A stretch of 41,258 nucleotides of DNA from Novakomyces olei (GCA_016906335.1 JADEYG010000009.1:1612001-1653258); one strand, 5' to 3'; shown: positions 1-29,715, counted from the stretch's first letter. Numbers and translations are program-made. Notes: generated from the letters alone by a model not told the origin.

Positions 1-1762
1 ATTGTCTGGCCTCTCGTGCTTCACATTAACGTCATTCGAGGAACCAATCCGATTGCAATCAGTGAAGTGTGAAAGGTTTATATCAAATAGCCTTTGCCCG
101 CTGAAAGCTAAAGCAGCCAGTTCATTTGAGTTTAAATTAGAAGCATGAATGTCGTTCGCCAATCTCATATTGAAAAGACTGGCTAGAGCTCGATTTTCTA
201 GTTCGGCCATCGATTTATCATTCTTCGAGTTGGTATTTGCTCCCAAAGACGATGCAACGGCATTCCGTGCAATCTGATCGTTTCCATGATCCAGAATCGA
301 ACCTGCTACTTCGAGCAAGCCGGGATCAATCGCACTATGGCTAGGCCAAACAGCTTTTGAGTCTTGCTTTGTTTCCATATTGTTGGCCCGAGCAAAGGAG
401 TTGTAATTGGTGTCGGGCAGCGCCACCCGTCCCTGTTCAGCCACAGTTTGGCGAATCAAGCCTAAATCTTGGTCTATTTCCCAATTGCTCAAGTGGAAAA
501 TGTTGAGCGGCACGCAATATTTAGGGAATGGTGATTTCTCAGACAATTTTGGGTATATTTCACGTAATTTGACGTTACGGTATCTTTCAACAATTGCATA
601 ACGTTTACGAGAATTGTCTCTCAAAAGCTTTCCAAAAAGTTGCTGCTTTTGCCACTAGAGATACTGATTAGCGACGCAATCCAATATAAAGTGGCATTAA
701 AAGACAAGATCGATCTCGAGATACAAAACAAATAGCACGAGTCAACAGAGATATAAAAAAAAGAAATTCAAATAAAGAAAATTAACATTAAAGTACCAAA
801 TATGTCTGTAGGCATTGCTGTGTCATTGAACGCTGAACTCTTCTCGACATTTTTTTCTTCATCGCCATTTCCGAATGCGCCCTTTGAATACGTCGGTCAC
901 GAGCAGCCGCCAGCTGCTGGATATCATCTGCAAACATTGAGCTCTTTCCTAGTCGTACATTTGTCTCCTCCGCCCGCAAAGATGCTTCTTTAAGATTGCA
1001 CAACGTAGTAGCTATGGCCCTGTAAAAGTTTGCGAGTATATTTTGTAAGGAATCCTCATCGCGACTTTGACTATTCTCCGATACTTCTAGCATACTTGCA
1101 ACTTGAGACTGTTGCTCTTGTTTTAGCGGCACCGAATTGATCTCTGGGTTTGAATAAATATTAGGGTTTAATCATAAAATTTATAAATTGAATACCCTTT
1201 GAATGATATAGCTTTCGTCTCTTGACAGGCGTAAACGATTCCATCTCTACATTTTCTTGTGACGGTTGTAAGCTTTCATTTTCCTGAGAAAGTCTGTCCG
1301 CCTCTTCATCCGTTTGTGCCATACGATTCTCTCGTTTAATTATTTCCCCGTTTGAAGAATGATTGCCATTTCTGAATGATAACGGCGAGGAAGCGTTTTC
1401 AGATTGCTTTTCTCTTGCAACAGGCGTCTCTGAGGTATTTCTTGTTGCGCTCGGCTCACCGCTTGATGCATCGACTTGCTTTCCTGTATATTCTTTTGCA
1501 AATGCAGTTAGTATCCACTCTGTAATGATTGCGTATATCGAAGAATAGACTTTTAAAAGAGAAACGAGCAACGAGAACCAAGATTCTTTGTATTTAGTAT
1601 ACTTGAAAAGGGCGACCATATAAAGGCCGAAGATTCTTCCGTCGGAGCGGAATTAGACCCCGCCGGAATAGTTTCCGGCTGTGGATTTTTCTTGAAAAAG
1701 GCGCGCTTTATTGCATTAGATCGATTATTGCCTATCCCCTGGCTAAATAGCCCAAAGGGCAT
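1..1762 (-). CDS. Multi-exon gene, 3' end truncated by the window; divergent Sds3/Dep1-like (Rpd3L/Sin3-HDAC subunit family) coiled-coil protein
   Basis: ORFs 1553-1762, 1161-1619, 788-1132 and an open frame from ~656 to 1 can be joined through GT..CTAAY..AG introns (~1601-1490, ~1195-1143, ~796-657). The segments LRAEETNVRLGKSSMFADDIQQLAAARDRRIQRA and LSNWEIDQDLGLIR resemble the Sds3-like coiled coil and its C-terminal L..xEIxxDL motif. Family assignment is by eye. Confidence 0.5.
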
Positions 1763-8984: not shown

Positions 8985-10031
8985 TTATGCAATTGCTTCA
9001 CGTATGAATATCAAAGTTTCAGCTCGAATCCAACTTTGAAAGTCCTCTAAAGAACTCTCCGTCGGCTCCCATCCAGCATTACGCGCTCTGACTGCTCGGG
9101 CTCTGCTGTTACTGCCGATCAGATAACTCGGCTCAATAGGCAGTGAAACACCTTTAAAAAAAGCATCGATTTCGGGCTGAGTAGTATTAACGACCTTTGA
9201 ACCCGGCTTACTCAAACCCGCATCGATGAATGATTGGTTCACAGCGTGAGAAACGAATCTCCACTCAAACTCGCCATTCTCAGCAAAGTAAAATCCGCTA
9301 TATTTTTCTTCGTCCTCCAATAGCTTGCTAAATAGCAGGGAATAAGCTCGAGCGAGATCAGTTACATTTATCTGTGTCCAAACCGCCAATCCTTTGCCGA
9401 TATGAAAAGCCTGTCGGTTTTGTATTCCGATTTTGATGTTAAGCGGTACTTGAAACGAGTGCACAGTCAGTCCAGTCCCATGTCCCCAAATAAGTGGAGG
9501 CGCTATTATTGCAGTTGCAACACGGTTCTGCCTGGTGACATGCTGAATTAATAGATCAACGTTCCTATGTGGAGCATTATCAGGAATAGAAGCGAGTTCA
9601 TGCTCATTGTCGTCATGATAAACTTTGCCGCCTTTGAATTGACCCTTTGCGTCGTCCTGTAGCAAACTCGTACCGCTCGTATGCAAATAAATCGGATTAG
9701 CTCCCGACTTTTTAGCAGAAACAAGTCCTTTTAATATTGCGTCGGCCGCATCATAGTCATCGGCATTTGCAGTATGTACAGTTGCATCAGCCGCAGCAGT
9801 CTCTTTTTCTAGTAAGCTTAAATCTTGCAAACTGCCTTGAATGATTTCAATATACTGCGCCCAACCTCTGAGCTCGGCCCAGCGCTCTAATTGCCGCTGT
9901 TTTTCTGGTGTGCGCACTAATACACGCACGCGTATATTCTTGATGTTTTGTAGTTGATCCGCCAAAATTCGGGTCAAAACGGTTCCCCCAATGTAGCCTG
10001 TTGCGCCTGTAAAGAATATCGTAAACGCCAT
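8985..10031 (-). CDS. NAD-dependent epimerase/dehydratase-like extended SDR (YLL056C-like)
   Basis: IFFTGATGYIGG Rossmann motif, YLHTSGTS, HRNVD, IIAPPLIWG, GSNSRARAVRAR..GWEP; intronless, 348 aa. Confidence 0.85.
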   Translation of the reverse strand: MAFTIFFTGATGYIGGTVLTRILADQLQNIKNIRVRVLVRTPEKQRQLERWAELRGWAQYIEIIQGSLQDLSLLEKETAAADATVHTANADDYDAADAILKGLVSAKKSGANPIYLHTSGTSLLQDDAKGQFKGGKVYHDDNEHELASIPDNAPHRNVDLLIQHVTRQNRVATAIIAPPLIWGHGTGLTVHSFQVPLNIKIGIQNRQAFHIGKGLAVWTQINVTDLARAYSLLFSKLLEDEEKYSGFYFAENGEFEWRFVSHAVNQSFIDAGLSKPGSKVVNTTQPEIDAFFKGVSLPIEPSYLIGSNSRARAVRARNAGWEPTESSLEDFQSWIRAETLIFIREAIA

Positions 10032-10804: not shown

Positions 10805-13672
10805 TTACCATATATTATGCTCCAGCATTGTATTAAATACCCAGTCTGTATCGCTGCTTTGGATCGAATTTGCTAATGCCATTAATTGGGTTGCTGTTGA
10901 CCCATCAACAAGGACGAGATCATCACTTATTATCGAATTAGCAGTCGGCCAAGCTTCCTCTGGAGTAATTTGATCAACCGCGTGTGCTAATTCCGGAGGC
11001 ACTAGAGCACTGGATGAAGGTAAATTCACGTTTGATGCTTGGGGATTTATTGGATGCCCATTGTCGTTTGATGTACTAGACTCGCGTTCGAAAGAGCGCA
11101 TTGAATCTTCCCGTGTTATGTAGTAAATATTAGAACTCAGCTGCTGAAGCTCTGAGCGACGATATTTCGCAATAAGATTGCCGCTTAAAACCATTTCTTT
11201 AAAGACTACATCCGCTTTTTTCAACCAGATTTCCCTGTCTTTTAAAAGATCTTGATTAATGGCAGAGCACGTTAAGAGAATGACGGTAGAAACGGATATA
11301 TTCTCAAGATCATGCGCCAAAAATGTTTCTTTTACACCGTTAGCCGCTAGTATTCAAGCAAGCAAAATATATTAATTCGCAAACATTAATTCAACCACGA
11401 AAATTAAAATTTATATATAAATACCGAAACTCAAGATCAAAAGCAAACAAAAACTTTATCAAGAAATGAAACATTGAAGCTTAAAAAAGAAGACAACGAA
11501 CTAAATTGAAATTCATTATTTTACCTAGTAGACCTTGTGATTGAAGTCTATTAAGAATATTAGTTATTTGCTGTGATGATTCGACACATGTACGCATAAG
11601 ACTGCTGACGCTATGCGAAGAATATAGAAGGTCTAAAAGTGATTTCGAAGCTTTTAATCGGATTTTCAATAGGCAGAAAGCCAGTGGACGAATTGCAAAA
11701 ACGATACACTTGTCTTTTAGTAAAAGCTGGCATCAAAGAATCCAGAAAATAGGCTAAGGCATCTTTATACTCTTACCTGGTGATACAAAAGATGAAGATG
11801 CGCTGACGTCCTGGAAACTCCACTTGTTTCCTTGTCAGATTGTAAAGGAAAAGTACTGCGAAGTTCATCGTTTAATTCTGCCAAATTCGATAATGCCGCC
11901 TTTGTGCTAAGTAAAAATGTTCGGTTTAGTCTTCCTTGAAGAGCATACACAGCTATTTTGTTAATTGTACGTATAAGATCATAGCAGCTATAGTTGCACT
12001 TACTGTTGTTAATTTTCGCAATAACTCTGGAGAGCTTTAAATGCATTTGAAGCGAAGTCGTCATTTCTGCCAATCCGGGAGAGCTTATAGGCATTATATT
12101 TGTGGCATCGTTGCTTAGGTATTGAGGTAGACCCATCAAAGAAGTCATCTCAAGATCTAAAACGTATATAGTCCACCATATTTTAGTGCATCTTGCGACT
12201 GTCTTTTCTCCTAGAGACTCTTTGGACATGGCAGTGTGCATGCCTTGCGCCATAGCCATTCTAACAGCTTGGCCAATCTATTTTATAGTTAGACAAAGAT
12301 CAAACACTAAAGGCAAAAGGAAAATTATCGAGCAAAGACCAAACATGGAAGATTTAAAACATCAATATTCAGATATCGAAATATTTGTTAATGATATAAA
12401 CACCAGAACCCCGAATTAATAGAAAAGACCTGATATCAGCTTACATAATTGTGAGCTGAGGCTCTATAATCAATTGCTTGGTAATAGAGCGCGATACAAG
12501 TCAAGATTTCTATAGATTGCACGTAATCGCGATACAATGCAGAAGGGTCCGGTAAGAGTTGCAGAGCCTTTACAAAAAAGACGGCTCCCGGCGGTCTATT
12601 ATTGCTAAGACCCTTTTGCTGCGCGAAGCCTTTACCGAGCGCTAAAATAAGCAGGAAGTGAATGTACCACAAGCTGTTTTTAGACAGTGCGGAACAATCG
12701 TCCGAATAAAATTCTTGTAAATTCTGCATAAAGACATCCTCGTCGTATAAATGATATAATTGCCCACAATGAAACTTGACGGTATTGATAAGGTAAAGGG
12801 TATAATCTAACGTAGGGATCGGAAGAGAACATTCGTCACTAACATTAAACCGCAGCCCATCCCAGCCCGTATCATACGTCGACTCATCAAATATTAAAGC
12901 GTCCGTTGGCAAAGGTCTTTCGTACAAGTGCAGATAGGTCATGCTCAGAATTCTGAGTATAAACGACCAATTTGACGATGTTCCCATATAGACTAAGAGT
13001 CAGCATTTTGAAATATGCAGGAAAGAGAGTAGAAAAGTTAAAAATAAAATGAATAACTGTTTGTCGTGTCGAAAAAACATTGATAAATCAAAAGTGCTAT
13101 TAGAGGCAATAAAACTGAACGTACAAGTTCTCCCGCGCGATGTTGACATGTATGCAGGCGGCCCTGAAGAAAGCGGGTTTGGTAGACTCGCTGCTAATTC
13201 TTCAGTTTGCCCTTGCTCATCGATCCCTTGATTAACAGAGCTGCTGTAGGCCTTATTGGGCTCTTGATGAGATATATCTTTATCAGTTTGTATATGCCCA
13301 GAGCCTTATAACCCATACCGAAATTTTGGGAGTGATCTAAAGACTGATCTTGTTCCATCTTGCTCTGTTCCATGGCAGCTATTTTCTGCTGCAGTCGCAA
13401 AACGTATCTGAGATTAGTATATCTCTTCATTGCCCCTAAATATTAGCCTTTAAATAATTACCCTTTAGTCACGAGAATCCGCTGCTCATGGCCATCAAAA
13501 ACACACGCGAGGTTGCGTTTGCCGCATACATCGCACGGTTGAGTACCAGAACACTTGATTTTGAGCCTTCGACATCGCGAGCATCTAATACGGTACATTT
13601 AGCTTACGCATAATATTGTCAAACTTACGCGTTAGGGGCCCTTTTGTTAACCCGGTGAGCATTGCCCGCCAT
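10805..13672 (-). CDS. Zn(II)2Cys6 transcription factor with fungal-specific TF domain, Put3/PrnA-like; multi-exon
   Basis: Spliced N-terminus MAGNAHRVNKRAPNA|CSRCRRLKIKCSGTQPCDVCGKRNLACVF (intron 13585-13628; missed by the ORF track), a coiled coil, then YMGTSSNWSF, FHCGQLYHLYD and KIWWTIYVLD..SLMGLP, as seen in proline-utilisation-type regulators. Confidence 0.85.
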
Positions 13673-14584
13673 TGCCGCCCGCCTTTGGGCAGAGTGATGT
13701 ATGTACCCCGAATAGACGGCGATACTGCACTATTATTTGTATTTTTATCAATTAATATAAATAGAGAGTGAGTGGGGAAATGTAGGAGAACGCTTGCCAT
13801 AGTAAAATAAAAGGCATATGTACGAGGTCAGACAACGACATGATAAGGTCGATATGCGATGGGCAAATAGGCTTTGTCGCTATTGAATGTGGGAAAGTAA
13901 AATCTGCTTATTATGGGACTAGATACCATCGTTGTGATCATTGCTGAGCTATAGTCAGGCGAAATTCAAAACGAGGGAGAGTATTTATAAAAGTGGTCTA
14001 TTAGGAAGCTGTGCCGTGGTGCAACACAAAATGCAGCATACCCAGGAAATTATTCCACATGAACGCTTTCAAGTTTGATTTGTGCTTGCACCTTTTCACT
14101 CATGTCATAAACTTTTAACAAAGCAATTTTAACTGAAAAATATAGCCTCCACTTTTTTTTTTTTTTTTTGCGCAAATGAGAATTTTATTTTATTTTATTT
14201 TTTTCTTCAATAAAATTGTATGCGGCAATTGATCACTTTTGCTGAGCAAGACAAATCAAATTTTCCTTCATATCAGCCGACAGCACTGTCTTCTTACAAC
14301 TTCCAATCATTTTGAAAGACTTGGATGGCCAATTTTTTTATTTGCAGGGTTTGCGATACCAGATTGCCAGATAATATAGTAAACTTTGTTATAATTGATT
14401 CAATTGTTGGCAACCGAATGCTGGAATTTTTACAAATTGGGGGCAAGAGAGCCAGAAAACAGGTCGCACATAGAATAAGACTTTTAATCCAATCTGAGTG
14501 AAGAGAAAACGGCCAGCGCTTCTCGTCCTTTCGGAACGATAATTTGTTATCGCTGCTTAAGCAAGCGCGTCACATACATCCAAT

Positions 14585-14598
14585 CGGAAACGTTCCCG
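14585..14598. promoter_or_regulatory. CGG-N8-CCG candidate Zn2Cys6 site (TF/oxidase divergent promoter)
   Basis: CGGAAACGTTCCCG. Confidence 0.6.
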
Positions 14599-14689
14599 AT
14601 CGCTGAGTGGGTACGATATAGTCAATACTGATAAAGTGAGAAGGAGCTTACCTTTGTGTTACTTTCTTTATTCTATAAATACCTGTTAT

Positions 14690-14703
14690 CGGAAGCGCTA
14701 CCG
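14690..14703. promoter_or_regulatory. CGG-N8-CCG candidate Zn2Cys6 site (oxidase promoter)
   Basis: CGGAAGCGCTACCG. Confidence 0.6.
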
Positions 14704-14857
14704 CGAGATACGTGGGCGCAATGTAACCTGCCTTTCGGAGAGCGATCTGGTCTTACATCAGATACTCCATCTTTATGGACTTAATAAAGACTGAGTAACT
14801 ACTTGAACTTAATTAGCAATTACAGTTCTGCTGCTTTGATATTTGAAGACGCGCAAT

Positions 14858-16283
14858 ATGAAAATTCAAAAGTCAGACCCAATAATCATAGTTGGTGGGG
14901 GCGCTTATGGTCTTTCGACTGCACTCCATTTGTTGCAAGATGGTTTCACCAACCTATCCGTCTTTGAAAAGAGCGAGACAATTCCTCCTTTACAGTCGGC
15001 TGCGAATGATCTCAACAAAATTGTGCGAGCGGAATACGAGGAGCCATTCTATTCGGATTTGACCTTGGTAGGCAGTATACTTTTTTTCAATAAACATATT
15101 TTTGTTCAATTTTGATCCGGTTTAGACATCGGCATAAAATGTTTTGTGCTATCATCTTTGGCTATTTACAGTTTTATTAATTTATCAGAAAGCAATTGAA
15201 GCTTGGAAAACTCCTCTTTTTGCGCCACATTTCCACCAAGTTGGTTTCGTCCACTGTGTGTCTGGAGCTGCTCCACAGGAAGCACAAAACACTCTAAACA
15301 GGTTCCAGAAGGCGGCGGAAAATAATCCGGTTCTAAAGCCTCATGTGAAACCAATTAACGGGCCCGTCGACGTGCATGAAACTTGCTGGCAATTCAATCA
15401 GGGCCAAACGCCAGGCTGGAAAGGCTACGTCAACTACTATGACGGTTACGCACACTCAGGAAATGCTCTTGTTTCTGTCTTTCGAGCCACAATTTCATCT
15501 GGCGTAAAGTACTTCTTGGGGCCTCAATACGAAGTCAAGAAAGTGATTTACGGTAAGCCTGTGTCTCAGAATTTTGCCGGTGTTCAAACAAAAGACGGTA
15601 AGATTTATAAGGCCGCGCTCGTTATTGTAGCGGCTGGAGCGGCAGTTGGACGCTTGATTCCAGAACTTGGAAGGCAAGTCGTTGCTAAGTCTTGGTCTGT
15701 AGCCCATGTCCATTTGACGGACGAAGAAACGTCGGCTTTACGTGGAATCCCTGTCACTTATGCCCGTGATTTAGGCTTCTTTTTCGAGCCTGATCCAAAG
15801 ACAAATTTGTTGAAACTGTGTCCCATGGGTGGTGGCTATATCAATACTGACCCAATGAATGGAGTATCTTATGCTCCGGAGTCTTATGGAGATAGTGCGT
15901 TTATGCCAGAGGAGGACGAAAAGAAAGTACGGCTTTTACTAAAGCAAACCCTACCTTATTTGGCCGATCGCCCTCTGGTGCAAAAGACACTTTGCTGGTT
16001 TGCCGATACAAAGGACACAGATTTTATTTTCGATTATGCCCCAAATTCTAATTCTACAGTACTTGTAATGTCTGGTGACTCTGGCCATGCTTTCAAGATG
16101 TTTCCAATAATTGGTTCATGGATCGTCGATCTTTTGAAGGCTCCCAATGGCCAACAGAATACAAAGCGCTGGCGCTGGAAGGAAGCTAACGACAAAAAAG
16201 AGAAATGGGCCGGAGAAGTCAGCTGGCGGCTTGGCGCAAGCACAGAGTTTGCGGATATCAAGCAGCCAAGGTCCAAACTATAG
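14858..16283 (+). CDS. FAD-dependent amine oxidase of the monomeric sarcosine oxidase / L-pipecolate oxidase / fructosyl-amino-acid oxidase family; peroxisomal; 2 exons (intron 15068-15188)
   Basis: IIIVGGGAYGLSTALHL, SAANDLNKIVR, LCWFADT (covalent-FAD Cys), GDSGHAFKMFP, C-terminal SKL (PTS1). Confidence 0.9.
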
Positions 16284-16790
16284 ATCTTGGCAACAGAATT
16301 GGGATTATTATTATTAGAATTATTTTTAGGTAAATAGTAAAAACATTTTCTTTTGAATTGGGAATCATGCTGAGCTTGAACAAATTAGATATAATAAAAA
16401 TCAATTGAAATCGGGGAAAAATTACAGTGAAATGCAAAGGTGTAGTGTGAAGAAGAATGGGCAGCAATGTGAATTTACTAATGATAAGATTTGTCTTTTG
16501 TCCTTCGACAGAGGCAGCTGCACTAAATTAATAAGATCAGATATTTACAAAAATACAGTGCATTCTGACCTATAAAATTGCTCCTCGAGTTATAAGACAG
16601 ACATAATGCGGGTAAGTGCTTTAGAACCTTTTTGCAATATGTAAAAAAAGGCTTTTTAACCTAAGAGACAACTGTAATTTAGATTGTATTAGCCAAATTG
16701 TTGAAATGAAACTTTTTATCATATCCGTCTATATATTTATAGTGACTCGAGACCTGATCAGCTAAAACTGGAGATGCTGTCGCGAACAAC

Positions 16791-18774
16791 TTACTCGTTG
16801 CTTGGATATAAGAAACCGACCTGGGGAAAAAATTCTTCCTTGATCAAACGAGGATTACAGAATTTGCGTAATACGTCTGAGCTGCCCGCCTTATCGTTCG
16901 TACCGCTAGCTCGAGCGCCGCCGAAAGATTGCTGACCAATTAGAGCAGCAGTAGTTTTGCAGTCTGTGAAGAGTTAGAATTATTACAAAATAATAAATAA
17001 AACAGCTAAAATAAATGAACGTACTGATATAAAAGTTTCCGGCAGAATAGCGGAGCTCATTTTCAGCCTCTCGGATGATTTTCCGGTCCTGAGCGAAAAT
17101 AGCACCTGTAAGGGCCAACCCGCCACCGGCCTGGTCAACAGTCTTAAGCATCTTTGAGAAATCGGCATCAGGGTAAACGTAAACAGTAAGAACAGGCCCA
17201 AAGATTTCCTCATTGAAAAGCCTATGCTCCGAACTCTTTGCAACGTAGACAGTAGGCTTGACATAATATCCCACAGAATCATCATAACTACCACCAGCAA
17301 TGCACTCCAAGCTGGAATCGCTATTGCTCTCATCGATAATCTTCTTGATCTTATCGAAAGAGCGTCGGTGAATGACGGGGCCCATATAAGCTTCCATATC
17401 CTTGTCCGGGTTGCCGATAGTAATCTTGCTGATACCATCTTTCAACAGAGAGAGAAACTCTTGTGCTCGCGATTCCGGAAGGTACAAACGCGAAGTTGCT
17501 GAGCACTTTTGGCCCTGGTACTCAAATGATCCACGGATAGTGTGGTAAACAGCACTTGGAATATCAGCGGTAGAGTGAACAAGATGGAAGTTCTTCCCAC
17601 TTGTCTCAGCTACAACACGAGGAAACTCGCGATAAGATTTGCTGGCAATTCCTTGACCAATACGGCCATAAAGAGATCGAAAAACATCAGAAGACCCAAT
17701 AAAATTAAGACCAGCGAAGTCACGGTGTTTAAAGACCGCGTCGTTGATGATCTCAGGATCACCAGTGACGAATTGAATTACATTCTTTGGCAGACCTGCT
17801 TCCAAGAGGATTTTGTATACCAGATAACTGGCATAGACGCTAGAGGGAGAAGGCTTCCAGAGAACCACGTTGCCCATAAGAGCGGGAGCAGAGACCAAAT
17901 TACCTCCTAGAGCGGTAAAGTTGAAGGGAGAGATGGAATAGACGAAACCCTCCAGAGGCCGATAGTCGAGTCGGCTATATTCAGGTTAGAATTGTGAACA
18001 AGGTATAAAACTGCAATACGCTAGTAAGATTGAGTATTATATATTTGAACATTAACCGAGCAGACACAAAAGTAAGCCAGGGAATCATACCTCCACATTC
18101 CATCACTGCCCCGGTCAGGCTGTCTAGCAAAAATTTCTGCGGCATAATTACAGTTCAATCGAAAGAAATCGGCCAATTCGGCGGCAGCATCAATTTCAGC
18201 TTGCCAGATGTTCTTTCCTTGGCCTAACATAGTGGCTGCAATAATCTCATATCTGTACTTTCCAGTCACCAATTCAGCTGCCTTTAAAAAGATGGCTGCA
18301 CGATCGACGAATGGTGTGTTCTCCCACTCCTTCTTAGCACTTAGGGCTGCTTCAATGGCCTCAGAGACTTGCTCCTTTGTCGCAAGAGGGTAATTAGTGA
18401 ATTTAATTGCGTGCTCTGCTGGTAAAGGCTGATCCCATGATTTTTCGCTACTGTGCGATTTGCCATCGAATACAATTTCGCTTTGCAAAGGCAATTGAGA
18501 TCGGAGTCTCTTTAGAACAACTTCCAACTTTTCACGTTCCTCTGAACCCTTTTTATAGTGTAACTAGAACAAATTTAGCAAACAGTTTGGTTAATTGATA
18601 GCAAAATAAAGAATTTTTTGAACGGATTGGAGGAAAGTTTTTGCATTGGCGTACGTTAGACTCGTTTCTGGGATCAGGTAAGCGAAATGGCATGGTGGTG
18701 CTTGTTCGAAGTTGAACAAACCGACCCGCCTGGCGCATTGATCGCGCATTAGAGATTAATGATAATCTAGCCAT
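16791..18774 (-). CDS. PUT2: Delta-1-pyrroline-5-carboxylate dehydrogenase (ALDH4), mitochondrial; 4 exons
   Basis: Presequence MARLSLISNARSMRQAGRF; MLGQGKNIWQAEIDAAAEL, ISPFNFTA, ETSGKNFH, FEYQGQKCSATSR (catalytic Cys), EEIFGPV, GGARASGTNDKAG, end YPSNE*. Probably a cluster-specific paralog. Confidence 0.95.
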
Positions 18775-18927
18775 ATTACGATGTGCTGACGCCTTGCTTT
18801 TGTATAAAATGCTGTTACACCGGAAGTCTGAAAGCACAAGAACTGGCTTGTCAAAGAGCAGGCTGTCCCCTTTATACATCTGTTATCGGATAATAATTAT
18901 TATAATTCAGCTACAATAAATGTACGT

Positions 18928-18941
18928 CGGATGCTTTCCCG
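18928..18941. promoter_or_regulatory. CGG-N8-CCG candidate Zn2Cys6 site (P5CDH promoter)
   Basis: CGGATGCTTTCCCG, ~155 nt upstream of the ATG at 18774. Confidence 0.6.
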
Positions 18942-19479
18942 ATGGTTATTTTTTCCTTATCTTGTTTCCATATCGGACGGAACACTCCAAATTTGGAGTG
19001 GCGGTAAAGTGCGAATATATCCCTAGACACAAATCGCATTTGAATGGAATATGGAGAGCGAAGCAGACCATGTATTTGTAAGAAATTCTGTATTTTGATG
19101 TTTTCAAACTAAAATGACCCCAGCTGTCAAATGTTTGCGTGTTGTTTTGGGACTATTTTGTATCATGTTGATGAACCATGTGATGTGTTCAGTACTAGCA
19201 AGTGATGGTTAAATGTATATGTATTTTTTTCTAATAAACAATTACCTAAAACTACTGAACTTGTCGTTATAATTAACAGTGCTTGTAGAGCTATGGGAAA
19301 AGACATGCTGACCTAAGAAAATTCTGCAAAACATGTAGTCAGAAATAATTACCAATAAAATGTGCCGTCCTACTTAAAAGCCAGATAAACTTTGGACGTG
19401 AATTGAATCTCTTTAGCCAACTGAAGAATCTCATATTTTAATGAAGCAGATCAATACTGTAAAATCTATTTAAAACATT

Positions 19480-20453
19480 TTAGTGCCTTGTATCGTTAAT
19501 GTGGGGTACACTTCCCATAAGGCGGGCTACGGTAACTGCTTCACGCACAGCTCGTCCCAAATGACCTCGAACCCCTGCTTCTTCCATGACCATCACTCCA
19601 GCGATTGTACAGCCTCCAGGTGAAGTGCCCTGATCCCTCAATTCCGCTGGAGATACCCCACTTTGAAGAATACCCGCTGTACCGCGCATAGACTGAAATA
19701 TCATTTTACGGGCAAGACTGCGGGGCACGCCAACAGCGACAGAAGCATCAATCATAGCATCACAAACAATTGAGAAAAATGCGGGCGTAGAGCCAGCCAC
19801 AGCAGTAGCTGCATCCATCAATTTTGGTTCAATTTGGACTGTTTCGCCAATTTGTTCGAAAATGAAATTTGTCAAGTAAAAAAGGTCCTCTGGAGGTTTT
19901 GGATCTGATACTTCAATAGCAGTCAGAGACTGTGCAACCTGGGAGGCAACATTGGGCAAGGTACGAACAACCCAAGCCCGATCTTTTGTATGGTTCTCAG
20001 CCGTAGTTTTAGATCCGTAAAGTGCTTCTTCCAATTCTGGTCTTGTCCAGCCAGCAGCTACACTTATCAAAAGTTTGCCCTTCAATACCTGACGAAGAGC
20101 GTCATTGTTCAGTACCTCTGCAATCTCGCTAGGTTCAACGCCTAAGATTATAGTATCTGCCTCCTCGACCGCTTTGACGTTCTGGCTTCGATAAACTGAA
20201 AGCTTGTCCGAGTATTTGGAAAAACGAGCCTCAAGTCTTGAGCCCGACGCTTCGCTGCGTACGCATGCAATGAACCGTGAAAAGGGGAAATGTTTCGCGT
20301 CTTTTTCAACAGCGGCAAGTAGACCGCCTAAAATGGCAACGCCCATGTTTCCTGCCGACAGAGCGAAAATTCAGGTCAGAGAAATACTTCAAAGGTGTGC
20401 TAGGCTAACGTACCACATCCTAGTATACACAGAGTCAAGTTACTAGGAGCCAT
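19480..20453 (-). CDS. PRO3: Pyrroline-5-carboxylate reductase; 2 exons (intron 20352-20413)
   Basis: Spliced ILGC|GNMGVAIL, LLISVAAG, VVRTLPN, TAVAGSTPAF, TSPGGCTIAG. Confidence 0.9.
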
Positions 20454-20904
20454 TATATACAATAGAGTCTGCAATGGAGTTAAAGCAAAGCCTAAGCGCG
20501 TCCGGTTTTGTCTGGTCTACTGCTGATATTAATTTATTATATACGCTTGAAAAACAGAGAGTATAGTGCAAATCTTTCGATGCGTTATCTTCCAAATCTT
20601 CGGTATACGTGTGATAAAGCATTTAAATGGGTTCTATCGGGATTCGGATCCGATGATATCTTGTGCGGGATATATAAAACGGTGTGTGTGGGCGTAATAT
20701 TAAATATAGTCTGAAATGGATAAGTCCGATAAGAAACTAATGAAATAATCTGCAAACTTTTTGGCGCTATTATTACTAAAATTTTCATAACTGGATCTAC
20801 ATAATCGATAACGGAAGGGTTTTACTCATACCTCGTAATCATCATTTATCTAAATTTCTTTTCATCGCTTAAATGTTCTGTGTTCAATTTGAAAATCAGG
20901 ACTT

Positions 20905-22432
20905 CTATGTAGAGACAGCTGGTAAAAATCGAGAAAAACATCTCCGGGCCAGCTCCTTCTTTAAAGCTTTGTGTTCATCACCAGTGCGTGCTACAGCGTC
21001 TCTATTTTCAACAGCTCTGCGAAGAAGGTACGCCAGACATTCAGTCATCGTTCCCCATTGCGAGCACTTGTAAACCTCTGGAGTGCCGCTGTTGTCCTTC
21101 ATTTGTAGTAGAGAGAAACTGACTTCGTCGGACATTCCATGAAGCTGTCCAAATCGAACTGGTACCGTTGGTAAATTGTGCTCGATTCGATGCTTGTGAA
21201 GATCGTGAGCTTCAATTACACTTTTCTTGTTGTGGCTTGCCAAGAAAAGGTTAACCAATGGGAATGGCTTATCAATACCAAATTGTTCAAACTGTTGTTT
21301 AAGTACAGACTGAGAGATGTAGTTGTAAGCATCGTCAGTATTCTCTTTTGTATCGTGGATCAGACACCTCTCGTCGGTATTCATATAGGCGCCTCTGACT
21401 AACTTCAGACCGAGTGTAAATCCTTCTTTTTCAGCCTCATCCATATGCTTGAGGATTGTCGACGGAGTACTTTTCAAGTAAGCCTGATATGTATTATAGA
21501 TAATCGCATAGCCGTCCCTGTTATATTTGCGCATGAGAACCATGCCGGCTTTGAATATTCCCCATTGGAAACGCTGAGATTCAGCATCAATGAGGATGCG
21601 AATACCGCGAGATTTGCATTTTGTAGCAATTTCATCCATAGCATCAACTGCTTGTTGTGACGGAAGTTCGTTCCGTGCTAAAGCCGCCGCAACATTAGGC
21701 CCGGCTCCAGTCATTCTAAAAATTAGTTTAAAAGAATTTTCTAAAAAAGTCTTGAACCTGTTTCGGTTTCAAGGCTTTAGCGCCTTCTTTCACTTACTTT
21801 AGAGCCAGATAGTCCCCTTCTTCCAGAAACTCCACAGTCAATAAAGTTCCGACCCGCCAGGATTCTATGTTTGCACACTTAGCAAGAGCTGGGTCTACAG
21901 ACAGTCCCTTTTCTTTTTTTTCCAACACCGCCATTCCTAAGCCTTGCTCTGTTCTTGTTTTATGATCGAAAGTTATCTCCTTCGCATAAGTCATAATCAT
22001 GCCACGAAACCCCATATTTTTTATTTGCCGAACGGTAGATTTGACTTGATCAGCATTTTCTCCAGAACAAAACTGATTGTAAAACGTTTTCTTCAGAAGA
22101 TTTTTTAACAAAGGGTTGCGATCGACATTATAAATAACTGATTCTCCTGGGCTTGAGATTTTTGTTAAGGCAGCAAGCGCTGGAGTAAGAAGATATGGTT
22201 TTGATGAGACTGTTGAAACGAGCAGTGACCTTAAAAGGATAGGAGTCGGTATCGCAGACAGAGGTGGTAACGCAGATGTCTCAGCAGGCTTATCGAGCTG
22301 CTCAGCCCGTACCCCGGCACTTGAAGAGGAGGACTGGATTCCCCTGACAAAAGATCGATCAAGTAATTTTGAAGAATTTGCAACCGACTTTAAAAGATCT
22401 AGTCTAGAATTTGACACAGCAATACTTGCCAT
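20905..22432 (-). CDS. PUT1: Proline dehydrogenase family, likely hydroxyproline dehydrogenase; mitochondrial; 2 exons (intron 21716-21797)
   Basis: TFYNQFCSGEN, ALK|MTGAG, LIDAE, YNTYQAYLK, GLKLVRGAYM, ASHN, GQLHGMSD, VYKC..WG..YLLRRAVEN; N-terminal presequence. Confidence 0.92.
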
Positions 22433-22769
22433 TTCGATCTTACTTCTGTCAAGTTTAGTTTTTCGAATCTAGTATTTGGAGGTTCAAGGAGATGGAGCTT
22501 TGATTTAAAGGTGGTAGACTCCATCTCTTATCAGCATATCGAATCATGCCTATTAGATTCTTTATTCATTCTCGGGTTTAGTTTCCGTGTCAGGCACGAC
22601 AGCGGTAAATACAGATTATTTTTGCTTTACAAATTGTCATTACTTGATTGTTCGCCATGCCCACAATTGCCGCCTGGAACTCCTGTCATCGGCCAATCAA
22701 AGACCACTATCTTATCAAGGGTGGAAAAAATAAAAAAATACACTAACCCTCTCCTTTCGGACATGACAG

Positions 22770-22846
22770 CGGGAGCTCTTCCGTCCGCCATATTGTGGAG
22801 ACAGGGCAGTTTTACCGACGATGCTGCCGACACGGCAAAGCTCCCG
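22770..22846. promoter_or_regulatory. Two CGG-N8-CCG candidate Zn2Cys6 sites (PRODH promoter)
   Basis: CGGGAGCTCTTCCG at 22770-22783 and CGGCAAAGCTCCCG at 22833-22846. Confidence 0.6.
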
Positions 22847-23277
22847 ATTACTTTCGTATGAAGTTGTTAAACAGGCACAGTAATCCCAGTCCGCTAGCAG
22901 CATTTATAAGCAAAGTTATTACAGTATTTTACTAATTTTATTGCGGCCTAGAACGAGAATCAATTGGTCTTCAGATGAAAGGGAAACCGATTTCTTGCCA
23001 AACTCCATTTCTCTAAAAGACGAGGAAAAACTGCTAGTTTTTGTCATTATATACTTCTAGACTCTTATTTCTAGTATTGCTCTAGCCGCCATCAAATCCA
23101 TATTAACGTTCGTTTTCATCGGCTTCGAACTTCTATTCAAGGATTAATATAATAAATAAATAATGCCCAAAATATTTGCCCGACGAGTTTTACCATTGCT
23201 CAATTAATGATACAATATTTATGCAAGTTCTTACATCTAAGCTTTGACATTTATATGATTAAAATTGGCTATGGCAA

Positions 23278-24789
23278 TTATCCTTTTAGCGCGTTGGCTA
23301 TAGATTTCGCCACGTACTCAACATTTCCTGGATTAAGACCAGCAATGGAAATACGAGAATTTTCCGCCATATATATATGGTATTCCTCTTCATTTGTTAG
23401 AACAATCGATTATTGGATATAAGATGATAACAAACCTTTAAGTTTCCGAACAATCTCCGGAGACAATCCAAGAAAGCCGAACATGCCAGTCTGCTTGATT
23501 AAATGGTCCCAAGTCCCAGGGGCACCTTCGATATTAGTCAACAGTTCTAGTCGATATGATTTAAATGAAATGCTGAAGGAGATACCTAATGAAAGCAGAT
23601 TCTCATATAATCTTTCCCTCATCAACCGAATCCTTGAGCTCATAGTAATCAAATCTCGGAACCATTCTTGCCGAAGATCATCATTGGTTAGAATATTTGT
23701 AGCGATTTTAGCCCCGTAAGCCGGAGGATTGGAGATTTCAGATCGCTGCAGCATTTCAAGCATAGATTGACTATTAATAGCTGACGTTGTGCTGTTCGTC
23801 TTGAGAACAAAGCATCCAACTCGTTCTCCTAGAAAGTAAAAACAGTCAAATAACTTTCAGAATAGAAATGCAACACCCAAATTTCTAATTAACATTAAAA
23901 AATTCATCTTTGTCAAGCTTCTTACCATAAAGACCCATATTTTTAGCAAACGATACACAAACTCCAGCTTCCATATGTAATTCGCCGATGATGTAGTGAA
24001 TAGCAAACGCGTCGTTATCAATATTTCCAGAGTTAAATCCCAGATACGCGGCATCAAGCAGAGGGAACATTTCTTTAATTTTCAACAATTTGCACAATTT
24101 TACCCACTGATCTCGGCTTGGATCACAGCCAGTTGGATTATGAGCACAACAATGCAAAATGACAACTGACTTATCATCTGCCGCTTCCAAATGAGAATAA
24201 TACGTATCAAAGTCCAAATCTTTAAATTCTTCATTATAATATTGCAATTTTTCACACTTGAAGCCTAGCGAAGAGAAAACTTGGAAATGATTCGACCAGG
24301 TTGGCACAGGAATATAAATTTTTGGTAGAGTTTTTGGATGACATGCCCTTAGAAGCGCTCCTGCCACATGCAAAGAGCCAGTGCCCGATAAGGTCTGACA
24401 TGTTGCAATCTGAGATTAGCCCTTGACCAATTAATCTCATTTATAACATTTTAGACACATTCGAAAATGAATAGATGTTATACCTTGTCTTGAGACTTTG
24501 CATAAATCTCTGAGCCCAGAACCAGCTCGGCAACAGACTGCCTAAATCTAGGCAGTCCTAGAATTGGAAGGTATTCATGATTCAGACCCTCATATGCTAA
24601 GCTTTCGCGGCTTTTCCTGACAGATGGCAGGATCCATGGTTGTCCATTTTCATCACGATATGTCCCTTGTCCCAGATTGACTTTTCGTGTATCAGTGTCT
24701 TTCTGAAACTGTGCAGTCAGTGCAAAAATAGCATCAGGAGGAACGTATATGGCGCACGCCAGAAAAGACGGCGTCTCGTCTTTTGTCAT
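23278..24789 (-). CDS. Aspartate aminotransferase family (class I PLP); candidate 4-hydroxyglutamate transaminase; ~5 exons
   Basis: PPDAIFAL, KVNLGQGTYRD, HEYLPILG, PTWSNH, LHCCAHNPTGCDP, SFAKNMGLYG (PLP Lys), RSEISNPP, QTGMF, SRISIAGLN; no obvious presequence. Confidence 0.92.
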
Positions 24790-25046
24790 TTTTGCCGATC
24801 CTGCTATTGAGCCCAAAATAATGGGTTCTTTTGAGAGGCACAAGGCACGTAGTCCTATATTATATGTACATATATATATTTGCCGGACCTCATCGAGTGT
24901 TCTGCGCTTTCGCCTTTATACATAGCTCCAATTCTCCAGAGATTACAATAGTGCTATAAGTGAATTGAGGTCAATTTTCACGTTATTGGAAGTATCTTGA
25001 GTTGTTCTCATTAACCCTGCGATACTTTTGCGAAGTTTCTTGGACA

Positions 25047-25060
25047 CGGAAGCGATCCCG
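25047..25060. promoter_or_regulatory. CGG-N8-CCG candidate Zn2Cys6 site in the ~410 bp divergent aminotransferase/aldolase promoter
   Basis: CGGAAGCGATCCCG. Confidence 0.6.
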
Positions 25061-25197
25061 TTCATATCAAAGGCGCCCACTTAAGATTGATTAAATAAAT
25101 GTTCAAGTTATTGAGAGTATAATTTAGCGCGCTTGGAACGACTTAGCAAAATCCCGTCTAGCAGCCAAACCTACGAGTGCTCTGCCGCAAGATAACA

Positions 25198-26157
25198 ATG
25201 ACAAACCATCCTAAGTTGCACGTTCCATCATCAGGCGTTTGGTGCCCGGCCATAACCTTCTTCAATCATGATACGGACTCATTGGATTTAGACTCACAAT
25301 CGCAATATTTTTCGTACCTGGCGAGATCAGGGCTCACTGGACTCGTTATACTTGGCACCAACGCGGAGGCTTTTCTGCTGACCCGTGAAGAGCGCAAGCA
25401 GCTTATTGCAACAGCCCGCGAATCAATTGGACCCGAATTTCCGATCATGGCCGGTGTCGGAGCCCACTCTACAAAACAGACGTTAGAACTTGCTCAGGAT
25501 GCTTATGAAGCGGGGGCTGACTACTTACTGGTTTTGCCTCCCGCTTACTTTGGCAAAGCCACCACCATAAGCGTGATAAAGAATTTTTTCGTTACTGTGG
25601 CAGCCAAAGCCCCGCTTCCAGTCGTCCTGTACAACTTTCCCGGTGTTTGCAATGGCGTCGATTTGGATTCAGATACAATTACGGCGATTACACGCGAAGC
25701 GCCTAATCATAATGTTGTGGGAGTTAAACTGACTTGCGGATCTGTCGGTAAGATCACCCGTTTGGCAGCAACATTTTCGCCTGAAGAGTTTGCCGTGTTT
25801 GGTGGTCAGTCTGATTTCCTTATTGGCGGTTTAGCGTCCGGCAGCGCAGGATGCATTGCCGCGTTTGCAAACGTTTTCCCAAAAACTATCTCTTGCATCT
25901 ATAGGCTGTACAGTGAGGGCAAATATGAGGAAGCTTTGAAATTGCATCAAAAGGCAGCCCTGGCTGAGAGTGCTATCAAGGGAGGAATTGCTGCTACAAA
26001 ATATGCTGTAGCCTACCATCTGGAATCTGCTGGAGTATTCAAGAGCATTACTTCAAAATTGGAGCCAAGGCAGCCATACGAGGCTCCTAGCGAGCCAGCT
26101 AAGCAAACTATCAGGGAAAAACTAGCTGAAGTTGCCAAGATTGAATCAAATCTGTAG
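25198..26157 (+). CDS. DHDPS/NAL-family class I aldolase, probable 4-hydroxy-2-oxoglutarate aldolase (HOGA1-like)
   Basis: GLVILGTNAE, LTREER, MAGVG, LVLPPAYF, LYNFPG, VVGVKLT (Schiff-base Lys). HOGA specificity is inferred from gene context; the same family includes L-threo-3-deoxyhexulosonate aldolase. Confidence 0.85.
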   Translation: MTNHPKLHVPSSGVWCPAITFFNHDTDSLDLDSQSQYFSYLARSGLTGLVILGTNAEAFLLTREERKQLIATARESIGPEFPIMAGVGAHSTKQTLELAQDAYEAGADYLLVLPPAYFGKATTISVIKNFFVTVAAKAPLPVVLYNFPGVCNGVDLDSDTITAITREAPNHNVVGVKLTCGSVGKITRLAATFSPEEFAVFGGQSDFLIGGLASGSAGCIAAFANVFPKTISCIYRLYSEGKYEEALKLHQKAALAESAIKGGIAATKYAVAYHLESAGVFKSITSKLEPRQPYEAPSEPAKQTIREKLAEVAKIESNL

Positions 26158-26834
26158 ACAAAGGTTTAAAGAGACGCCAGGTATATAAAGAAAAATTGTT
26201 AATTAGCACTGTATTTAAAATTTGGTCTGTGTTCCCGCTGATATTGAAAACTTTTTGGTGTAAATTGTTGTAAATTTGTTATGACCTTATTGGAGACCTA
26301 TCGTAACTTGACAATCTGAAGGGATATCTGCCAGGTCCACTATACTAGATGCTCGACACAACAGTTTTGAGAAGGTTGGATTTCAGCTGGTCGAATAAAT
26401 TGGATTAACCGAGCAACACTTTGTATAATTAGGATGAAACAAATAATTATACTTAGGGGAACTGTCTTCTACCGCCTTTTTTACAGGAGCAAGAGGAAAT
26501 CAAAATTGTAAGTAGAAAAAAGCACATCCTACCTTTTGTTGATTATTGCCGAAAAACATTAATTATCATTCGAGTTCATGCGTTCAAAGTGGATTCGCCC
26601 GCATCAGGTTTGACTTTTTCTTCATTACAAGAGTCGTTCTTAAAAAAATCTAAAAACCTGAAGGTACGATTTGAGGTACGAGAGCTGTAGTTTGATCTTG
26701 ATTGAGAGCACGCCAGAGTTCACCGAGTACTTCGTCTAAGTTTCGGACGATGAGTATAGTATGTGCAGTCAGCACTCAATCCGGCAAAATTAAGCGCTCG
26801 GAGAAACTCCATTTTTTCAAGCCAATCAAAGATT

Positions 26835-27133: not shown

Positions 27134-29715
27134 ATGCTGACAGGATCTGACGTAGAAAAAAGTCAGAATACTCGACCTTTAGACGACGAAATGGCAACGG
27201 CGGTGCTCAAGGATGGAGAATTGGCTTCAGAGCATGAAGTTAGAGATGACAGGTCCAGCGCAGACTCTTCCTCTTTTATTTCCAGCAATGATCTGGACAA
27301 AATTACGCAAATAGACGGTTCCAATGTGCTCTGTGCCAGTAAGTGCTTAATAAAATGTTCCTCGTGTCTAAGCATGTAGCCCTGCGGATGTGGGTAATTG
27401 CTATATTCCTGGTGACTATCGGTGTTGCTGTCAATTCCATATTTATGTTTCGTTTCCCTTCCGTAACAATTTCGGCCATTGTTTTGCAGATCGCCGCTTT
27501 CCCGCTCGGACGGCTTTGGGAGATTATTATGCCAAACAACTCTATATCTTTGTATAGATGGAGTATACCAATAAACCCCGGGCCATTTCACGTGAATGAA
27601 CATTGCTGCATTTTTATTATGGGCAATTTAGCCTTACCGTAAGCACGAAATTGCTCAAAAAGAAAAAGACGAAAAAAGAGAATCTTTTTAGGATCAGAGA
27701 TGCAAGAAACTGTTAATGGAAACGAGAACAATCTCGAGGCAAACCCTTGATCCCCAATCAAAAGCAGCTTTCAAAGAGACTTACAATTCTAGCATTCGCC
27801 TGAGTTCAGAAATTTTGTTAGAAATAAAACACTATTGGAAGCAAGATTTCAATGGGGGTTTCCAATATCTTTTTACAATCTCTGTTATGCTATTTGGACT
27901 GGGTATGGCCGGGATGTCAAGGTCCATTCTTGTAGACAACCCGGACATGCTTTGGCCTTCTAATCTCGGCAACATTGCTTTGCAAAACGTATTGCATGGC
28001 CGCAATTCTCAATCAAAAGAACTTACAGGCTGGAGAATTTCCGTTTACTCCTTTTTTATCTGTGTTCTTTCCGGCGCTTTTGTTTGGCATTGGTTTCCGG
28101 ACTTTATTTTCCCGGCTTTAAGCACTTTGGGTGCCTTTATCAGCTGGTGCAAGCCGTCTTCAGCTACTCTTGCCCAAGTATTCGGAATGAGCACAGGCAT
28201 GGGATTGTTTCCACTAACTTTAGATTGGAGCCAGATCGCCAACTTGGGCTCACCTCTCACCACACCGTGGTGGGTGATTACAAATATGGCTTCGTCAATT
28301 GTGTTTTGGCTGTTTATTGTTACCCCGGCACTGTACTATTCTAATGTTTGGGATTCTGCTTATTTTCCTCTGCTGAGCAACAAACGTGAGTTTGTCTCCA
28401 ACCCCTTTGCATTTAACAACAGATTTTAAGCCTTGCCTACCGCCGTTTACGTATTTATTATTTGACTTTAAATTTTTATTTTTGCTTAGTCTTTGCCGTT
28501 ACTAATAGGCCAGTTTATGACAAGAACGGTAAAAGCTACAAGACCGACAGAATACTAAGCGGCATCACTTTCAATGAAGAAGGGTACAGCAGCTATTCCA
28601 GTATCTATCTGCCTATTACATACGCTCTTTCTTTTGGATTGGAGTTTGCCACGATTAGCAGCACTATAGTAGACGTCGGTCTAAACGAGTTGCCTAAATT
28701 CTTTAAACCTCACCGTGATAAAAGCGCAACAGAAAATGTGTACAATCAAATACAAGTAAAACACAATCCGACACCCTACTGGTGGCACGGATCTATCCTT
28801 ATAATTGGCTTTGCTCTTATGATGGCAGCATCTCAAGGCTGGGGTACACAAACGCCTTGGTACGCTGTGATCGTAAGCTGTCTTATTGCTCTCGTTACAT
28901 TTGTTCCTTTTGGCGTGTTGCGAGCTAAAACAAATCAAAAGGTTTCAATTATGGTCCTGATGCAAATTATTGCGGGTTACTGGTTTCATGGAAGACCACT
29001 ATCTGTAATTTTTATGATGGCTTTTGGGTTTTTGTCGGCTGATAAAGGTCTGGCATTTGCACAAGACATGAAGTTTGGGTATTACCTGGGAATCCCACCG
29101 AGAACTGTTTTCTTTGTACAGCTTGTTGGAATACTTTGGTCAGGTCTAGTGGAAGTTGGCGTCGTAAATTGGACGCTGGCAAATGTGGCGCACGTTTGCA
29201 CTAAAGACGCTTATAATAACTTCAATTGCCGGTTTGCCCAATCACATTACAATACGAATATAATCTGGGGCGTTATTGGACCTCAGAGAGTTTTCGGCGA
29301 GACTCATTATGGCAAACTATATTGGTTCTTTCTCATTGGTGCAATATTGCCAGTCATCAGGTTCGTTATACTGCGCTTTAGGCCTAAATCTTTCGTGCGG
29401 CTTGTCAGTATTCCTTTGTTCTTTAGTGGCGCCAGCAATATTCCAACCATAACTGGTGTTAATATTACGTCTTGGGCAATCGTTGGTTTTGTTTTCAACT
29501 ACGTCATCCGCAAAATAAACAGAGCCTGGTGGTTGATCTACAATTTTCCCTTGAGCGCTGCGCTGGATGCTGGTACCAGCATTGCAACGATCTTAATATT
29601 TCTTGTCATTAATTTGACTGGGGCGAGTAGTAGTTTTTCCTGGTGGGGGACAACTGTCGCAGGGAAAGGCTGCGACGCGGAGGGCTGCCCCCATTTAAAT
29701 ATTGCCAACAGCTAG
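27134..29715 (+). CDS. Oligopeptide transporter (OPT/Isp4 family); 4 exons (introns ~27339-27379, 27639-27792, 28386-28513)
   Basis: TLRMWVI, NPGPFHVNEH, MLWPSNL, WHWFPDFIF, TLDWSQI..GSPLTTPWW, QDMKFGYYLGIPPR, WGVIGP, LSAALDAG, SWWG. Confidence 0.95.

Follow-up and report, generated by a model that had tools for sequence, protein, structure and literature searches.

What element, read by which factor, might bring a group of catabolic genes in Novakomyces olei under common control? The stretch analysed (41,258 bp, one strand, GCA_016906335.1 JADEYG010000009.1:1612001-1653258; referred to as the window, with positions counted from its first letter) encodes a Zn2Cys6 regulator, an FAD amine oxidase, a pyrroline-5-carboxylate dehydrogenase-type aldehyde dehydrogenase (P5CDH), a pyrroline-5-carboxylate reductase (P5CR), a proline dehydrogenase family protein (PRODH), an aminotransferase, a lyase that is a candidate aldolase, and an OPT oligopeptide transporter. 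An earlier note on this DNA had pointed to inverted CGG triplets separated by eight bases (CGG-N8-CCG, or N8; other spacings are named likewise) in the promoters of the cluster and had predicted that they are read by the cluster's own regulator. Our counts confirm that the motif is real, conserved, spacing-specific and cluster-specific. Judged from the sequences, we consider it likely that the motif acts as the upstream activating element of a catabolic cluster conserved in Pezizomycotina and that the Zn2Cys6 regulator encoded in the cluster reads it as a homodimer.

CGG-N8-CCG sites in the window

The earlier note had placed six N8 sites upstream of the oxidase/regulator, P5CDH, PRODH and aminotransferase/aldolase genes. 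All six are present as written, all are intergenic, and they lie 150-400 bp 5’ of the oxidase, P5CDH, PRODH and aminotransferase/aldolase genes. An N9 variant that had been described in the P5CR (PRO3) promoter is also present, but of a partial match described near 26799 in the OPT promoter only one CGG triplet is intact. The sites and variants in the cluster promoters are as follows, with a strand given only where one applies.

14585..14598: N8 site in the divergent regulator/oxidase intergenic region, 273 bp 5’ of the oxidase ATG and 913 bp 5’ of the regulator ATG
14690..14703: N8 site, 168 bp 5’ of the oxidase ATG
18928..18941: N8 site, 154 bp 5’ of the P5CDH ATG (18774)
22770..22783: N8 site, 338 bp 5’ of the PRODH ATG (22432); perfect match to the extended consensus on the minus strand, reverse complement CGGAAGAGCTCCCG
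22833..22846: N8 site, 401 bp 5’ of the PRODH ATG
25047..25060: N8 site in the divergent aminotransferase/aldolase promoter, at 151 bp from the ATG of the aldolase and 258 bp from that of the aminotransferase; perfect match to the extended consensus
20638..20652: N9 variant, 292 bp 5’ of the P5CR ATG; candidate weaker site
22573..22587: N9 variant, 141 bp 5’ of the PRODH ATG; candidate weaker site

The window contains 14 N8 sites, compared to 2.41 +/- 1.53 expected from 100 dinucleotide-preserving shuffles, none of which reached 14 (maximum 7). When inverted CGG/CCG repeats with spacings from N0 to N20 were counted, N8 was the commonest, N9 followed with 10 and the rest had 0-7. The extended consensus CGGAAGNGNTCCCG, with at most two mismatches allowed, gave nine matches at eight places, compared to 1.16 +/- 1.10 in the shuffles (0/100 shuffles as high); these places are the six sites listed above together with 1664 and 9693. 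The description of the six sites as lying in AT-rich intergenic DNA holds for their intergenic position; they are AT-rich only insofar as GC makes up about 40% of the whole window, and the kilobase bins that contain them have a GC content of 0.39-0.48.

The cluster promoters of the window were set at 13599-14857, 18775-19374, 20347-20904, 22433-23032, 24790-25197 and 26534-27133, the first of which includes 74 bp of the regulator's first exon and intron without any effect on the counts. These promoters make up 4,025 of the 41,258 bp (9.8%) and contain six of the 14 N8 sites (binomial P 1.3e-3), so that N8 density is 1.49/kb in the cluster promoters and 0.215/kb in the remaining window; four of the six promoters have a site. 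The eight further N8 sites are at 1664, 9693, 15316, 17072, 20313, 25827, 38760 and 31757. Those at 15316, 17072, 20313, 25827 and 38760 are within coding open reading frames, and that at 31757 is inside a long open frame (31247-32560, minus strand) that has no Pfam match. Where contigs from four sequencing runs matched positions 9001-29000 well, they did not differ from the window, and they gave neither variation nor transcript ends.

Recurrence of the motif in orthologous loci

Orthologous loci were obtained as metagenome contigs retrieved with the lyase (aldolase) reading frame, and neighbouring genes were identified by tblastn with exon translations from the window. A lyase orthologue, 48-71% identical, is encoded in 54 metagenomic loci (given L numbers), eight of which pass the threshold set for a cluster neighbour (at least 45% identity over at least 60 residues). 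The aminotransferase gene is divergent from the lyase gene in L001 and L002, the same as in the window, and the P5CDH gene is divergent from it in L016, L018, L021, L033 and L035. Two loci are duplicates of others, L019 of L018 (99.9%) and L024 of L010. A fuller gene order could be read from Pfam matches in L018 and L033: P5CDH, lyase, amino-acid permease, aminotransferase, regulator and oxidase.

Forty-nine loci include the 5’ end of the lyase gene, and the 700 bp 5’ of it were searched in these; in 46 of them the upstream sequence is 150 bp or longer. All eight loci with cluster neighbours had an N8 site there, compared to six of the 38 others (L007, L009, L010 and its duplicate L024, L017 and L038). 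By spacing, these upstream regions have 24 N8 sites in 14 loci, 16 N7 sites and 16 N9 sites, and the other spacings range from 1 to 10.

A set of 21 cluster promoters (11,876 bp) was then assembled from the six of the window and 15 from seven other loci. N8 occurs 30 times in 19 of these promoters, followed by N9 with 11 sites and N7 with seven, and every other spacing has 0-5. A preferred spacing of inverted CGG triplets is a mark of Zn2Cys6 (Gal4-type) sites, and both in the window and in the 21 promoters that spacing is N8. The footprinting in orthologous clusters that the earlier note had proposed is given by the 15 promoters from outside the window, all of which have N8 (24 sites), compared to six with N9 (nine sites) and four with N7 (seven sites). 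At 3.06 sites/kb, N8 is about 15-fold denser in the orthologous cluster promoters than in other fungal DNA, and across the cluster promoters the sites have a promoter location, 130-550 bp from the ATG.

Single loci show the same distribution. In L018 (15.3 kb), all five N8 sites are upstream of cluster genes, namely P5CDH/lyase, permease, aminotransferase, regulator and oxidase (P 2.3e-4), and in L033 seven of 12 are upstream of cluster genes (P 4.0e-4). Permease promoters with N8 were also found in L021, L016 and probably L035, where the downstream gene was not identified. Some site positions recur: the aminotransferase site is at -166 in L018 and -169 in L033, and the lyase site is at -151 in both the window and L001. 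The oxidase promoter has sites at -133 in L018, -275 in L033, and -168 and -273 in the window; its N8 sites in these three loci support the proposal that the oxidase belongs to the regulon.

The earlier note had also remarked on the likeness of the spacers. This holds within the window's own genome (CGGAAG.G.TCCCG; half-site CGG[A/G]A[G/A]C, with A at the fifth position in 11 of 12) but is not kept in the orthologues, where a T before CGG (24/48) and weak G/C and G preferences are what is left of the pattern.

Two side observations were made in the same loci. The transporter varies by lineage: it is OPT in the window, AA_permease in L018 (5552-8000), L021, L033 (11418-13800) and L016, and Aa_trans near the L002 pair (2172-3665). 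A 31-bp spacing, about three helical turns, separates five of 21 adjacent N8 pairs (L010, L021, L032 and L035); we dropped it as a claim because the sample is too small and one of the five pairs (L032) is in coding DNA.

Spacing specificity and controls

The motif had been read earlier as an N8 specificity of the regulator. N8 does dominate both the window and the orthologous promoters, but N7 and N9 are somewhat enriched as well. Because both exceed background upstream of the lyase genes, a strictly fixed N8 is too simple; the spacing rule seems to tolerate one base more or less, or a second factor is involved. In L001 (1290-1744) and L002 (7498-8089), the two closest relatives, a similar series of N8, N7 and N9 sites is found at similar distances from the lyase start, a shared arrangement which suggests that the N7 and N9 variants are used. 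It is possible, if doubtful, that the element is really a looser CGG-N7..9-CCG or composite site, bound by two related factors or by one flexible dimer, in which case N8 specificity would be an over-reading. The lyase-upstream counts and the L001/L002 series would fit such a site, as would the N9 sites in the window's P5CR and PRODH promoters. The 15 orthologous promoters argue for the narrower element, since N8 outnumbers N9 and N7 in both sites and promoters, and much of the N7 count comes from a single promoter of 66% GC (L033).

The recurrence of N8 was then set against controls. In an unbiased dyad scan (3-mer/N0-15/3-mer; 31,753 dyads seen, 40 dinucleotide shuffles), CGG-N8-CCG ranked first in the orthologous promoters, occurring in 15/15 compared to 2.17 in the shuffles (z 9.7). 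The next-best dyads were sub-patterns of the CGG-N8-CCG site with a preferred flank, and no alternative motif was enriched. As background, 187,872 bp from 14 non-cluster fungal metagenomic loci stood in for genome-wide promoters of the window species. Here N8 has 37 sites (0.20/kb), is unremarkable among the spacings (16-44) and occurs in 28 of 303 600-bp tiles, so that the motif is rare and N8 is not special in these 188 kb. Finally, the orthologous promoters have only three short blastn patches in common, so the recurrence of N8 is not residual sequence identity; pairwise identity among the lyases of these loci is 56-90%.

These controls bear on the explanation that the motif is an artefact of chance or composition, in which CpG-containing triplets would be scattered in promoters without function. 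Such an artefact could account for the eight of 14 window sites that are not in cluster promoters, most of them being in coding DNA, and some coding N8 sites recur merely through codon conservation. Against it, none of the 100 shuffles reaches the observed count, the signal is limited to one spacing, the motif is first of all dyads in independent orthologous promoters, and the background has no N8 excess. We give this explanation hardly any credence: the ortholog promoter counts, the dyad scan and the background DNA effectively refute it.

The site types of known factors were counted in the cluster promoters as well. N10 sites, the Put3 type, number five in the window and three in the 21 promoters, which is background. 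PrnA-type sites (CCGG-N-CCGG and CCGG-6/7N-CCGG) number 0 and 0 in the window, and 0 and 1 in the 21 promoters. The proposal that this regulon is distinct from Put3 control agrees with this absence of N10 and PrnA-type enrichment. Put3-type N10, Gal4-type N11, Ppr1-type N6 and PrnA-type sites were each rejected as the cluster element after this counting.

The cluster regulator

The gene for the candidate cognate factor adjoins the oxidase gene divergently.

10808..13672, minus strand: Zn2Cys6 cluster regulator gene (ATG 13672, end about 10808), with zinc cluster, linker, short coiled coil and fungal-specific transcription factor domain

The zinc-cluster exon was located by its pattern (C-x2-C-x6-C...C-x2-C-x6-C) at 13583 on the minus strand. 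It is preceded by a 44-nt first coding exon that starts at 13672 and a 44-nt intron (13628-13585), and the peptide of the first exon agrees with a basic N-terminal tail that is conserved among the orthologues. The regulator has the parts of a cognate factor for such a site, that is, a C6 zinc cluster, a linker and a coiled-coil element. With two exons joined as the query, its DNA-binding domain matched the Put3 entries 1ajy and 1zme best among solved structures (E 2e-6), followed by Lac9, Ppr1 and Gal4. Residues 4-56 align to Put3 residues 3-55 without a gap, through the zinc cluster and linker and into the coiled coil, in keeping with the earlier description of the regulator as Put3-like.

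Ten regulator orthologues from three classes align free of indels from the first cysteine to the coiled coil. The largest exon of the regulator has 254 relatives at E <=1e-5 among 677 candidates, and the named ones among the best 120 of these 254 are all Pezizomycotina, with Penicillium at the top (63% identity). These relatives go by generic or automatic labels, for example 'hypothetical protein', 'Zn(II)2Cys6 transcription factor' or 'Proline utilization trans-activator, partial'. Because of the indel-free alignment and these generic names, we regard the family as Put3-like in architecture and uncharacterised by name. Judged by the names of the regulator's relatives, the cluster appears to span Eurotiomycetes, Sordariomycetes and Dothideomycetes.

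The regulator gene lies inside the cluster in the window, in L018/L019 and in L033. An N8 site is found 500-550 bp upstream of it in L018 and L033, and in the window the region shared by regulator and oxidase contains two N8 sites. The sole CGG-N10-CCG of that region (13653) is inside the regulator's first coding exon.

These features would fit a simple mechanism. A homodimer of the cluster regulator would bind the palindrome, with one zinc cluster on each CGG triplet and with the 8-bp spacing dictated by its linker and coiled coil. In the presence of the substrate, the regulator would switch on the enzyme genes, whether their promoters are divergent or single, and probably also the gene that encodes it. 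Binding of the regulator to the motif, its dimeric form, activation, and hydroxyproline as the inducer or substrate are the steps that we infer.

Several observations weigh against the cluster regulator as the reader of N8 at these promoters. The window's OPT and P5CR promoters have no intact N8 site, and to this must be added the N8 sites outside the cluster promoters and the N7 and N9 excess discussed above. The promoter boundaries were set by gene annotation, but they were drawn after the N8 lists had been seen. No CGG-N5..12-CCG was found in the relevant intergenic DNA of L027/L028, where an aminotransferase-like gene is divergent from the lyase gene and a 2-hydroxyacid dehydrogenase gene is also present, or of L049, which has lyase, PRODH and P5CR genes. 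The majority of unclustered lyase orthologues have no N8 site in the 700 bp upstream. Unclustered lyase genes that do have one (L007, L009, L010/L024, L017 and L038) have no regulator gene in the fetched locus, which covers up to 10 kb on each side; their sites would fit either a regulator gene at another place in the genome or binding of another factor. By analogy to Put3, the equal length of the linker would, taken naively, lead one to expect N10.

The N8 palindromes could, then, be genuine and yet be read by another Zn2Cys6 factor encoded elsewhere, for example a regulator of amino-acid catabolism with a wider domain, with the cluster regulator recognising something else. The N8 sites at unclustered lyase genes and the Put3-like linker would agree with this, as would the use of CGGN8CCG by the unrelated ClrB and its proposal for BcSpd1 and GliZ in passages of the papers cited below. 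We judge this explanation improbable. A regulator gene is in the cluster in three independent lineages with N8 in its own upstream region; the dyad scan gave only sub-patterns of the N8 site after the site itself, and N10 and PrnA-type sites are absent; and the cluster-like loci that have no regulator gene in reach (L027 and L049) are likewise without the motif. Recognition of the N8 element by the cluster's own regulator remains our preferred reading, and as far as sequence analysis reaches, the interpretation of the earlier note is supported: each computational test by which it might have failed gave a favourable result.

Genes of the cluster and neighbouring features

Genes were identified by comparing six-frame open reading frames to Pfam, with starts checked by hand. 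The cluster has introns, and automatic splice models were rough; the 3’ exons of the regulator, only roughly modelled, are unreliable and were not used. The remaining cluster genes are as follows.

14858..16283, plus strand: FAD amine oxidase (Pfam DAO); closest solved relatives are fructosyl-amine/peptide oxidases
16906..18774, minus strand: P5CDH (Pfam Aldedh)
19480..20346, minus strand: P5CR (Pfam), single exon
20905..22432, minus strand: PRODH family gene (Pfam Pro_dh)
23278..24789, minus strand: aspartate-aminotransferase-like (GOT-like) aminotransferase, from its GOT-like match
25198..26157, plus strand: DHDPS-family lyase (Pfam), single exon; candidate 4-hydroxy-2-oxoglutarate aldolase
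27134..29715, plus strand (start about 27134): OPT oligopeptide transporter (Pfam); promoter without intact N8

The aminotransferase matches human GOT1 (E 4e-38). The best match of the lyase is 3qfe, an uncharacterised fungal-type structure of the DHDPS family (E 3.5e-140); it matches human HOGA1 (E 7e-30) and bacterial DHDPS (E 6e-34) about equally well. The PRODH exon gave no match to solved structures at E 1e-8. The match of the oxidase to fructosyl-amine/peptide oxidases is to 3djd (E 7e-49), and to our knowledge the physiological substrate of this fructosyl-amine-oxidase-like family in fungi is unsettled.

Two places beyond the cluster promoters fit the extended consensus.

1648..1677: abutting N9 (1648) and N8 (1664) sites, intergenic, 12 kb outside the cluster; candidate extra target
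9693..9706: N8 site within an NmrA-like/NAD-binding open reading frame (8985-10031, minus strand) directly downstream of the regulator gene

The pair at 1648-1677, whose N8 member is the one that fits the extended consensus, adjoins a minus-strand gene (1-1652) without a Pfam family, which is possibly a member of the regulon outside the cluster.

HGATAR (GATA-factor) sites were also counted. They occur at 6.2/kb in the window's cluster promoters and 3.2/kb in the whole window, with six each in the P5CR and OPT promoters, the two without N8. This density, only a count, is a hint of an additional layer of nitrogen-metabolite control.

At its end the window has a telomere-like repeat (41165-41257; unit GTTAGGGTTA, 9.2 copies). 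A 15-bp minisatellite forms two arrays (33432-34128 and 39799-40694, about 48 and 59 copies) that flank a DEAD/Helicase_C open reading frame of 1063 aa (35792-38983). Because the window ends in this repeat, with the minisatellite arrays inward of it, the cluster is subtelomeric, about 11-27 kb from a chromosome end.

Relation to known systems and biological meaning

As a class, pathway-specific zinc-cluster factors that read CGG inverted repeats are textbook knowledge. The upstream activating sequence of the PUT genes that is read by Put3 is CGG-N10-CCG. The present system resembles Saccharomyces cerevisiae Put3 (1zme) in the gapless alignment of zinc cluster, linker and coiled-coil start, in having PRODH and P5CDH genes among its probable targets and in the inverted CGG repeat. 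It differs in its spacing, 8 rather than 10, with N10 at background level in the cluster promoters, and in a regulon that adds the aminotransferase, aldolase, oxidase and transporter. Similarly to the prn cluster of Aspergillus nidulans, a pathway-specific Zn2Cys6 activator, here a putative one, is encoded within a catabolic cluster together with PRODH, P5CDH and a permease. PrnA, however, binds CCGG-N-CCGG and CCGG-6/7N-CCGG, as stated in a passage of PMC5983819, and such sites are absent from the window and nearly so from the 21 promoters, as counted above.

The N8 spacing itself is not new and is not unique to the cluster regulator. In A. nidulans, the ClrB site is CGGN8CCG, and a passage of PMC13267753 states that loss of either triplet abolishes binding. 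The same site is suggested for GliZ at gliA in part of PMC4006717 and proposed for BcSpd1 in part of PMC9280406. The triplet orientation and 8-bp spacing here are the same as for ClrB/CLR-2, but ClrB controls cellulase and mannanase genes, whereas here the probable targets are amino-acid catabolic genes and the regulator is closest to Put3 among solved structures.

The cluster's enzymes point to a pathway. In mammals, 4-hydroxyproline is converted to pyruvate and glyoxylate by PRODH2, ALDH4A1, GOT2 and HOGA1. All four enzyme types of this route (PRODH, P5CDH, GOT-type and HOGA-type/DHDPS) are encoded side by side in the window; unlike in the mammalian scheme, the cluster has an extra FAD oxidase and P5CR, which have no fixed place there. 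By sequence similarity, the enzyme set matches a mammalian-type 4-hydroxyproline pathway, and 4-hydroxyproline is the substrate that we infer. In lineages whose lyase gene lies outside the cluster, a D-2-hydroxyacid dehydrogenase gene often adjoins it (L027 11408-12511, L029 8359-9024, L044 8484-9200). This dehydrogenase is glyoxylate-reductase-like, and its position beside the lyase fits a glyoxylate-producing enzyme. Upstream of the lyase, L027 and L044 have no CGG-N7..10-CCG, and L029 has one N9 at -591.

In Candida albicans, hydroxyproline compounds failed to induce Put2, a Put3 target, according to a passage of PMC10621835. By analogy, this result would fit a separate regulator for hydroxyproline compounds; it says nothing on Novakomyces olei. 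Our literature search found no paper linking fungi, a hydroxyproline cluster and a zinc-cluster factor, and no description of the cluster or of the regulator family.

A wider proposal, which we put forward tentatively and at somewhat less than even chances, is that these loci represent an undescribed and widely conserved Pezizomycotina regulon for 4-hydroxyproline, derived from collagen or plant cell walls. It would be driven by a dedicated Put3-like Zn2Cys6 activator that has the Put3 linker length but reads N8 (with 7-9 tolerated), and it would place a fructosyl-amine-oxidase-like enzyme in imino-acid catabolism.

With these results, a testable cis-element and a candidate regulator are in hand for the catabolic cluster. 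A search for the motif can delineate the full regulon in any fungus that has been sequenced, and the motif places the oxidase, the aminotransferase and the transporters together in a single pathway. Direct comparison of the regulator with PrnA and with Put3, which has equal linker length and reads N10, is relevant to the question of how Zn2Cys6 proteins encode their preference for one spacing. If the proposal is true, the regulator would be a natural test case in which linker length alone does not set the half-site spacing, and the fructosyl-amine-oxidase-like enzyme would gain a place in the catabolism of imino acids.

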